The position numbers were made by a program, and so were the translations under genes. A stretch of DNA of 64,000 nt from Escherichia coli (GTDB taxonomy: Bacteria; Pseudomonadota; Gammaproteobacteria; Enterobacterales; Enterobacteriaceae): assembly GCF_044324785.1 (NCBI RefSeq), contig NZ_CP172127.1; one strand, given 5' to 3'. A model generated the notes under the pieces. That model made no database searches and was not told the origin of the DNA. It saw nothing but the letters and a program-made list of their open reading frames with translations. Below, one piece after another: positions 60,717 to 60,821 of the stretch. Numbering within the stretch: the first letter of the stretch is position 1; every line of letters begins with the position of its first letter.

Positions 60717-60821
60717 CCATCGTGGGAGATGGGCAAAGACTACACACAGCAATTCGTTGTTTCACTCAGGGGATTTCCATGCTTATAAATCAATATGTTG
60801 ATTTATAACCGTGAGCTAATA
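60717..60821 (-). ncRNA. rprA: RprA small regulatory RNA (Hfq-dependent activator of rpoS translation)
   Basis: Minus strand reads ACGGTTATAAATCAACATATTGATTTATAAGCATGGAAATCCCCTGAGTGAAACAACGAATTGCTGTGTGTAGTCTTTGCCCATCTCCCACGATGGGC + T7, matching RprA including its terminator hairpin. Confidence 0.88.

Follow-up and report, generated by a model that had tools for sequence, protein, structure and literature searches.

The rprA gene in the ydiK-ydiL spacer of an Escherichia coli chromosome and RprA 3'-like elements in phages and phage-plasmids

Which RNA gene lies between ydiK and ydiL in this E. coli chromosome, on which strand, and between which nucleotides? The window (the whole 64-kb stretch of DNA analyzed here) is the reverse complement of MG1655 ~1.767-1.831 Mb, and the first-pass annotation had placed RprA in this spacer. 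The Rfam covariance-model search that it had proposed as a check, run over the whole window, identifies family RF00034 (RprA) at 60705-60812 on the minus strand with a score of 118.5 bits (E = 1.6e-16; the gathering threshold is 70 bits), and the match covers the full model (positions 1-108 of 108). A permissive local rescan reproduces it without a competitor. The reference gene, MG1655 b4431 (NC_000913.3 1770372-1770477, 106 nt), is identical at 106 of 106 positions to 60707-60812 (minus), and this is the only exact copy of the reference sequence in the window. The placement of RprA is thus borne out by both comparisons. We consider it virtually certain that 60707-60812 (minus) is the chromosomal rprA gene of this strain, encoding the 105/106-nt Hfq-dependent trans-acting small RNA (sRNA) RprA; nothing contradicts this identification.

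With the RefSeq boundaries of 106 nt, the +1 nucleotide is 60812 and the last U is 60707; for the 105-nt version of the RNA, the interval is 60708-60812 (minus). These boundaries differ from the interval 60717-60821 given at first, where a "105-nt exact match" had been reported without a strand. The exactness stands, with 100% identity to K-12, and the strand is minus, but the interval itself lies 9-10 nt too far upstream. Its minus-strand sequence consists of TATTAGCTC followed by RprA nt 1-96 and ends ...CGATGG, so that it includes 9 extra promoter nucleotides and lacks the last 10 nucleotides of the RNA. Contrary to what had been stated, the terminator is therefore not contained in full: those 10 nucleotides are the last GC of its stem and the U8 tract in its entirety.

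The order ydiK-rprA-ydiL and the common strand of the three genes, also part of the first-pass annotation, are confirmed from the ORFs and the annotation. The upstream neighbor ydiK (60998..62110, minus; a 370-aa ORF, also annotated) encodes an AI-2E family transporter; the downstream neighbor ydiL (60213..60569, minus) encodes a DUF1870 protein, and its ORF starts MNAYELQ..., with the K-12 start mapped to 60569. Among the matches listed, 105 of 120 Enterobacterales loci have ydiK directly upstream of the RprA core, whereas ydiL is found downstream of rprA in only 8 loci among those listed with enough DNA. The conserved linkage is therefore ydiK-rprA, and ydiL is an Escherichia-level neighbor. 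Within the species, an RNA that is at least 99% identical and annotated as rprA is present in 5421 of 5426 complete E. coli genomes; the ydiK-ydiL spacer is present in 5423 of the 5426 and is 100% identical in many strains, and RefSeq carries the rprA label on the matching stretch in thousands of E. coli genomes. This is a known gene in a known place with a known sequence, and the identification as such is not new: rprA serves here as an annotation anchor that fixes the orientation of the 64-kb segment, and it touches no open question. In the same spacer, 7 nt past the ydiK stop codon, there is a perfect 10-bp GC-rich hairpin, ATCAGGCGGC-AGA-GCCGCCTGAT (60969-60991). It is not followed by a U-run on the ydiK strand, and accordingly the terminator scan makes no call there; it may be a stabilizer of the mRNA 3' end or a weak terminator that insulates rprA from ydiK read-through.

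The identity, position and strand of the gene are read directly from the DNA, and so are its promoter elements, terminator, fold, conservation and complementarities to targets. Placed relative to the K-12 5' end, a -10 hexamer, TACTAT, is seen at 60819..60824 (minus; -12..-7) and, after a 17-nt spacer, a weak -35 hexamer, TCGACG, at 60842..60847 (minus). Abutting the latter is a putative RcsB box, TGAGACGAATCTGA, at 60848..60861 (minus; -49..-36), which exactly matches TN(G/A)GAN4TC(T/C)NA, the consensus of boxes for the RcsB homodimer (PMC7913699). The same box is contained in the Salmonella PrprA oligonucleotide that was co-crystallized with RcsB (PMC7913699). The pattern occurs 3 times in the 64-kb window against 2.4 expected, so that a single match is not significant in itself; the weight of TGAGACGAATCTGA comes from its position and its conservation across species, an RcsB box being present upstream of the RprA core in 115 of the 121 Enterobacterales loci listed, with a modal spacing the same as here. 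A generic promoter scan makes no call for the rprA promoter because the -35 hexamer is weak, and such a poor -35 would fit an activator-dependent promoter.

RprA is known to be induced by the RcsC/D/B phosphorelay upon envelope stress and to require Hfq (PMC4152358, PMC3465796, PMC9262595). What is said here on expression, dependence on RcsB, binding to Hfq, processing and regulatory outcomes is carried over, by analogy, from the K-12 literature. By that analogy, transcription would begin at 60812. The sigma-70 promoter, whose -10 (TACTAT) is good but whose -35 is poor, would be activated by an RcsB dimer predicted to bind the box at -49..-36. Through activation by RcsB, RprA would report envelope stress sensed by the Rcs phosphorelay.

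The whole RNA has a predicted folding energy of -25.8 kcal/mol and is more stable than its shuffled versions (z = -2.5). The predicted architecture has a long hairpin at the 5' end (nt 3-32) and a terminator at the 3' end (nt 79-98 plus U8), with an open region between them. The 5' stem-loop SL1 (60781..60810, minus; core helix nt 5-15 / 20-30) appears in both the minimum free energy (MFE) and the centroid folds. The pairs of its helix are mostly canonical across 65 aligned homologs, with changes to G-U and a small number of changes on both sides (pair 8-27, for instance, is UA in 44 sequences, GC in 6 and GU in 4), so that the covariation is modest and consists mainly of G-U changes. The long MFE helix nt 5-15 / 20-30 is canonical in 42-65 of the 65 sequences and is better supported than the 5' hairpin of the Rfam consensus (nt 2-5 with nt 19-22), which is canonical in 30-54 of the 65. 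These pair counts refer to a 65-sequence subset, in which the non-canonical terminator pairs are alignment artefacts of variable loop length. RNAalifold applied to a 72-sequence MAFFT alignment spanning several families misses the 5' hairpin, since sequences from different families cannot be aligned in their 5' halves.

The central region (60735..60780, minus; nt 33-78) is mostly single-stranded, being unpaired in the centroid structure, and contains the target-pairing sequences. It is followed by a Rho-independent terminator detected by the terminator scan (60707..60734, minus; stem and loop 60715-60734, U8 60707-60714), with a 7-bp stem, GCCCAUC / GAUGGGC, that includes 5 GC pairs and encloses a 6-nt loop. 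Analysis of each sequence separately detects 47 distinct terminator hairpins among the 119 homologs listed, with compensatory changes in the stem, such as CCCAUC/GAUGGG, CCUGUC/GACAGG, CCCUUC/GAAGGG and CCCAAC/GUUGGG. The U-tail of the terminator would act as a handle for Hfq. Processed RprA has been described as the last 47 nt (PMC9262595) or as RprA60-105 (PMC3465796); with the processing site taken from the literature, this RprAproc, comprising the seed and the terminator, corresponds to 60707..60753 (minus; nt 60-106). Such a 3' fragment would coexist with full-length RprA and retain part of its activity.

RprA activates rpoS translation through pairing that alters the structure of the leader, represses ydaM as well as csgD (sites -119..-84 and -14..+7), and has further targets in narP, ricI and hdeD (PMC4152358, PMC3465796, PMC9262595). 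The published pairings are csgD site I with RprA nt 60-97, csgD site II with nt 28-45, and ydaM with nt 45-75 (PMC3465796). The central region described here contains the rpoS-pairing sequences CCCCUGAG...AACGAAUU and the csgD-pairing sequence UUGCUGUGUGUAGUC. RNAduplex on full-length RNAs gives inflated energies with huge internal loops; duplexes were predicted instead with a 36-nt sliding target window, with 120 shuffled RprA cores as the control. For csgD, the prediction is a continuous duplex of 14-15 bp between RprA nt 60-75 and -99..-85 (-28.8 kcal/mol), an energy reached by only 1 of the 120 shuffles, and it agrees with the published site I (PMC3465796). For the rpoS leader, the best duplex joins RprA nt 32-74 with -129..-94 (-27.6 kcal/mol), includes UCCCCU/AGGGGA and AACGAAUU/AAUUCGUU, and lies at the published site; when the leader is folded on its own, the -129..-94 segment is predicted to pair with the start-codon region. 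The same energy is reached by 17 of the 120 shuffled cores, so that the computation alone does not establish the rpoS pairing, and this step relies on the literature.

Taken together with the K-12 work, the mechanism would be as follows. The middle of RprA is predicted to pair with the upstream arm of the inhibitory rpoS leader hairpin (~-129..-94), which would free the ribosome-binding site and increase RpoS translation (anti-antisense activation). Nucleotides 60-75 and 28-45 are predicted to pair with the csgD 5' UTR, and RprA would also pair with ydaM/dgcM; these interactions would lower the expression of curli and of the biofilm matrix. In this sense, rprA is a textbook regulatory RNA that joins envelope stress (Rcs) to RpoS and to curli/biofilm control.

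The 21-mer RprA nt 61-81 is found exactly in at least 120 Enterobacterales species (one genome per species); the invariance of nt 61-81 in this set is by construction, the homologs having been fetched with that exact 21-mer. The genera include Escherichia, relatives of Salmonella, genera of the Klebsiella group, Erwinia, Pantoea, Pectobacterium, Dickeya, Serratia, Yersinia, Hafnia, Edwardsiella, Proteus, Providencia, Morganella, Photorhabdus, Xenorhabdus and Arsenophonus. In every homolog listed, the 21-mer is followed by a GC hairpin plus U-run. The 5' half varies and cannot be aligned from one family to another; within Enterobacteriaceae and Erwiniaceae, the long 5' helix persists, mainly via G-U and a few double changes.

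Outside the window, a search of plasmids with RprA detects partial matches whose extent is exactly that of the 47-nt processed form (nt 60-106). These copies are carried by ~90-kb plasmids of Enterobacter and E. coli, P1-like phage-plasmids with Lpa, PacA and tRNA genes (e.g., Enterobacter plasmid pJBIWA008_2, L126 3001-3047, and E. coli CH468 plasmid unnamed5, L127 3001-3047). The RprA 3' unit is also present in Escherichia phages LLS (L128 3530-3592), Eeyore (L129) and Flotzy, with further copies in E. wuhouensis (L101) and in IMG/VR contigs (L130-L249); the exact 21-mer is found in at least 120 IMG/VR contigs. In the phage and plasmid elements, RprA nt 60-81 is exact, several contain the whole 47-nt processed form at ~96% identity, and, in the variants listed, a GC hairpin and a U-run come after the shared segment. 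The host-type 5' half of RprA is absent from all viral contigs among the matches listed. The copies score 40.8-63.4 bits against the RF00034 threshold of 70, and therefore annotation pipelines miss them; a search of the literature for RprA-like elements, and for the core sequence as text, found no description of phage copies. The RprA seed is widespread in phage immunity and early regions and invisible to Rfam-based annotation.

The context of these copies is distinctive. In phage LLS, the copy is preceded by a PL-like promoter with operator-like repeats on either side, and its neighbors are a CI-type repressor and, beyond the copy, the first of the early-left genes. Among the 120 viral copies listed, 62 are preceded on their own strand, at a distance below 900 nt, by a CI-type repressor (HTH_3 + Peptidase_S24), and one of three early-gene classes follows the motif at a fixed spacing. 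A seed-independent check, with the search anchored on the upstream GC hairpin instead of the seed, retrieves 123 copies, with GCYGUGUGURG(UCUU) retained in 87 of them. At least 2 unrelated terminator stems are found joined to the motif, and a ribosome-binding site takes their place in 16 of the 123 hairpin-anchored copies. Given that the motif is kept while what follows it varies, the motif itself is the conserved item. Phage LLS (L128 3216-3530) and the P1-like Enterobacter plasmid (L126 2780-2990) also share a GC-rich stretch of at least 250 nt upstream of the motif, which is rich in hairpins, e.g., GAAAGCGCACT..., GTTGTGGTAATGCGGCTC.GCGCACG and GGCAGGTGGAGGCACCACCGCC. Upstream of the RprA-like motif, Rfam gives no credible family match in the phage regions searched, and in other viral contigs the same upstream hairpin precedes a tRNA or an ORF instead of the motif. 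One may speculate that the shared stretch is a structured early-leader RNA, perhaps antitermination-like.

What the comparison shows is the sequence module, how abundant it is and where it lies. A tentative interpretation is that nt 60-81 together with the terminator, i.e., the 47-nt processed RprA, could be a portable regulatory unit, copied or shared by descent, that taps the host RprA regulon. Temperate phages and P1-like phage-plasmids of Enterobacterales would then, with similar caution, have placed the unit just downstream of their CI-type repressor or PL region. It is conceivable, at a comparably low level of confidence, that a phage sRNA with the RprA seed would reach csgD, dgcM (curli, biofilm) and other targets independently of the Rcs signal. 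If functional, such units would be an example of phages borrowing the seed of a core-genome sRNA. Given the 16 of 123 copies in which the motif precedes a ribosome-binding site, the phage motif may alternatively act in cis, as an element of the early leader; the viral motif could thus be a phage sRNA seed, an early-leader cis element or, in some cases, an att core.

The last of these can be extended to the explanation that the 3' half of rprA is mainly an attB site for integrative elements and that the phage copies are attP cores rather than functional RNAs. The observation that favors it comes from Phytobacter massiliensis, where a full rprA is accompanied 8 kb downstream by a second, partial copy with phage remnants between them, the layout that integration into the 3' end of an sRNA gene would leave. 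Against this, the ydiK-rprA-ydiL spacer is intact in the window and uninterrupted in 5407 of 5423 E. coli genomes, and the LLS copy is 3.3 kb away from xis/int, between the repressor and the early-left genes. Moreover, the repressor lies just upstream of 62 of the 120 viral copies listed, none of the neighboring ORFs tested is an integrase, and no integrase was found in the Phytobacter island. Finally, unrelated stems replace the adjoining terminator next to a retained motif, a pattern that an att core would not require. We regard this explanation as improbable for the locus, and for the phage copies it is largely rejected, on the strength of the repressor-linked position, the lack of an adjacent integrase and the distance to xis/int.

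The Phytobacter locus is an observation in its own right. In NZ_HE578945.1, the full rprA and a copy of RprA nt 38-106 only are ~8 kb apart (L060 873-893 and L061 1236-1256). The 8-kb stretch between them contains a tape-measure fragment and an HTH_35 protein, and among its large ORFs no integrase was found. This island may represent the decayed remains of an element that either integrated at the 3' end of rprA or carried that end.

The phage lead, which lies outside the window, leaves the verdict on the rprA gene of the window unchanged. For that gene, two further explanations have very little to recommend them. That the stretch resembles RprA by chance, or is a decayed or non-functional copy (a pseudo-sRNA) instead of an expressed gene, might be suggested by the failure of the generic promoter scan to call a promoter directly upstream, but it is extremely improbable: the RNA and the full upstream promoter region are 100% identical to the experimentally studied K-12 gene, the window holds a single copy at the conserved ydiK-linked locus, and the Rfam E-value of 1.6e-16 speaks against chance. 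The idea that the region encodes a small protein instead of, or besides, a regulatory RNA is just as improbable and is rejected: the mechanical ORF list does contain two candidates, a 49-aa GTG ORF (60616-60765, minus) and a 58-aa TTG ORF (60632-60808, plus), but the former starts inside RprA and crosses the terminator hairpin and U8, so that it cannot lie on the terminated transcript, the latter is antisense to RprA without a recognizable promoter, and the cross-species comparison finds no preserved reading frame and a pattern of conservation typical of RNA, with a 5' half that is variable and contains indels, compensatory stems and variable terminator loops.

RprA had also been called the only non-coding RNA recognizable in the window. 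This holds to the extent that no tRNAs were found in the window and that the K-12 RefSeq annotation over the matching 64 kb has no non-coding RNA besides rprA, but three more Rfam elements score at or above their gathering thresholds. Phe_leader, the pheM attenuator of pheST and a cis-regulatory RNA, matches at 31905-32029 (plus; 74.4 bits against a threshold of 55). STnc540 matches at 35870-36028 (plus; 67.4 bits against 38) and is absent from the K-12 RefSeq annotation; it covers the final ~60 nt (last codons) of ihfA and extends to the nucleotide preceding the btuC start, contains a strong terminator hairpin, and looks like a 3'-UTR-derived sRNA of ihfA. The third, ES036 (CssrF), is a marginal match at 8001-8043 (minus; 42.9 bits against 37.6), likewise absent from the K-12 RefSeq annotation, in the spacer between nadE (8123-8950, minus) and cho (7006-7893, minus).

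Compared with known systems, the gene described here is the same as K-12 RprA (b4431; RF00034) in sequence, flanking genes, strand, promoter with RcsB box and terminator. There is no difference in the RNA or the promoter, and the sole substitution in the 424-nt ydiK-ydiL spacer, at 60673, is located 34 nt beyond the terminator, outside the RNA; the window is therefore not MG1655 itself, while its RNA and promoter remain identical to those of K-12. The phage and plasmid elements differ from RprA in that they lack the 5' hairpin, the rpoS-pairing segment CCCCUGAG, ydiK and the RcsB-box context, are located downstream of a CI-type repressor, and fall outside RF00034 by its own cut-off. The Yersinia sRNA Ysr49 (RF02766) gives a weak match to the same bases as RprA (60709-60802, minus; 25.6 bits), far below its gathering threshold of 95, and the 5' halves are not alignable. 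Yersinia loci have the RprA core and terminator downstream of ydiK, and Ysr49 is probably the Yersinia ortholog of RprA, kept as a separate Rfam family. DsrA and ArcZ resemble RprA in that pairing with the upstream arm opens the rpoS ribosome-binding site in an Hfq-dependent manner (PMC4152358). Their sequences are unrelated to that of RprA, and their loci and control are different, RprA being driven by RcsB; unlike both of them, RprA also directly represses csgD and ydaM (PMC3465796, PMC4152358).
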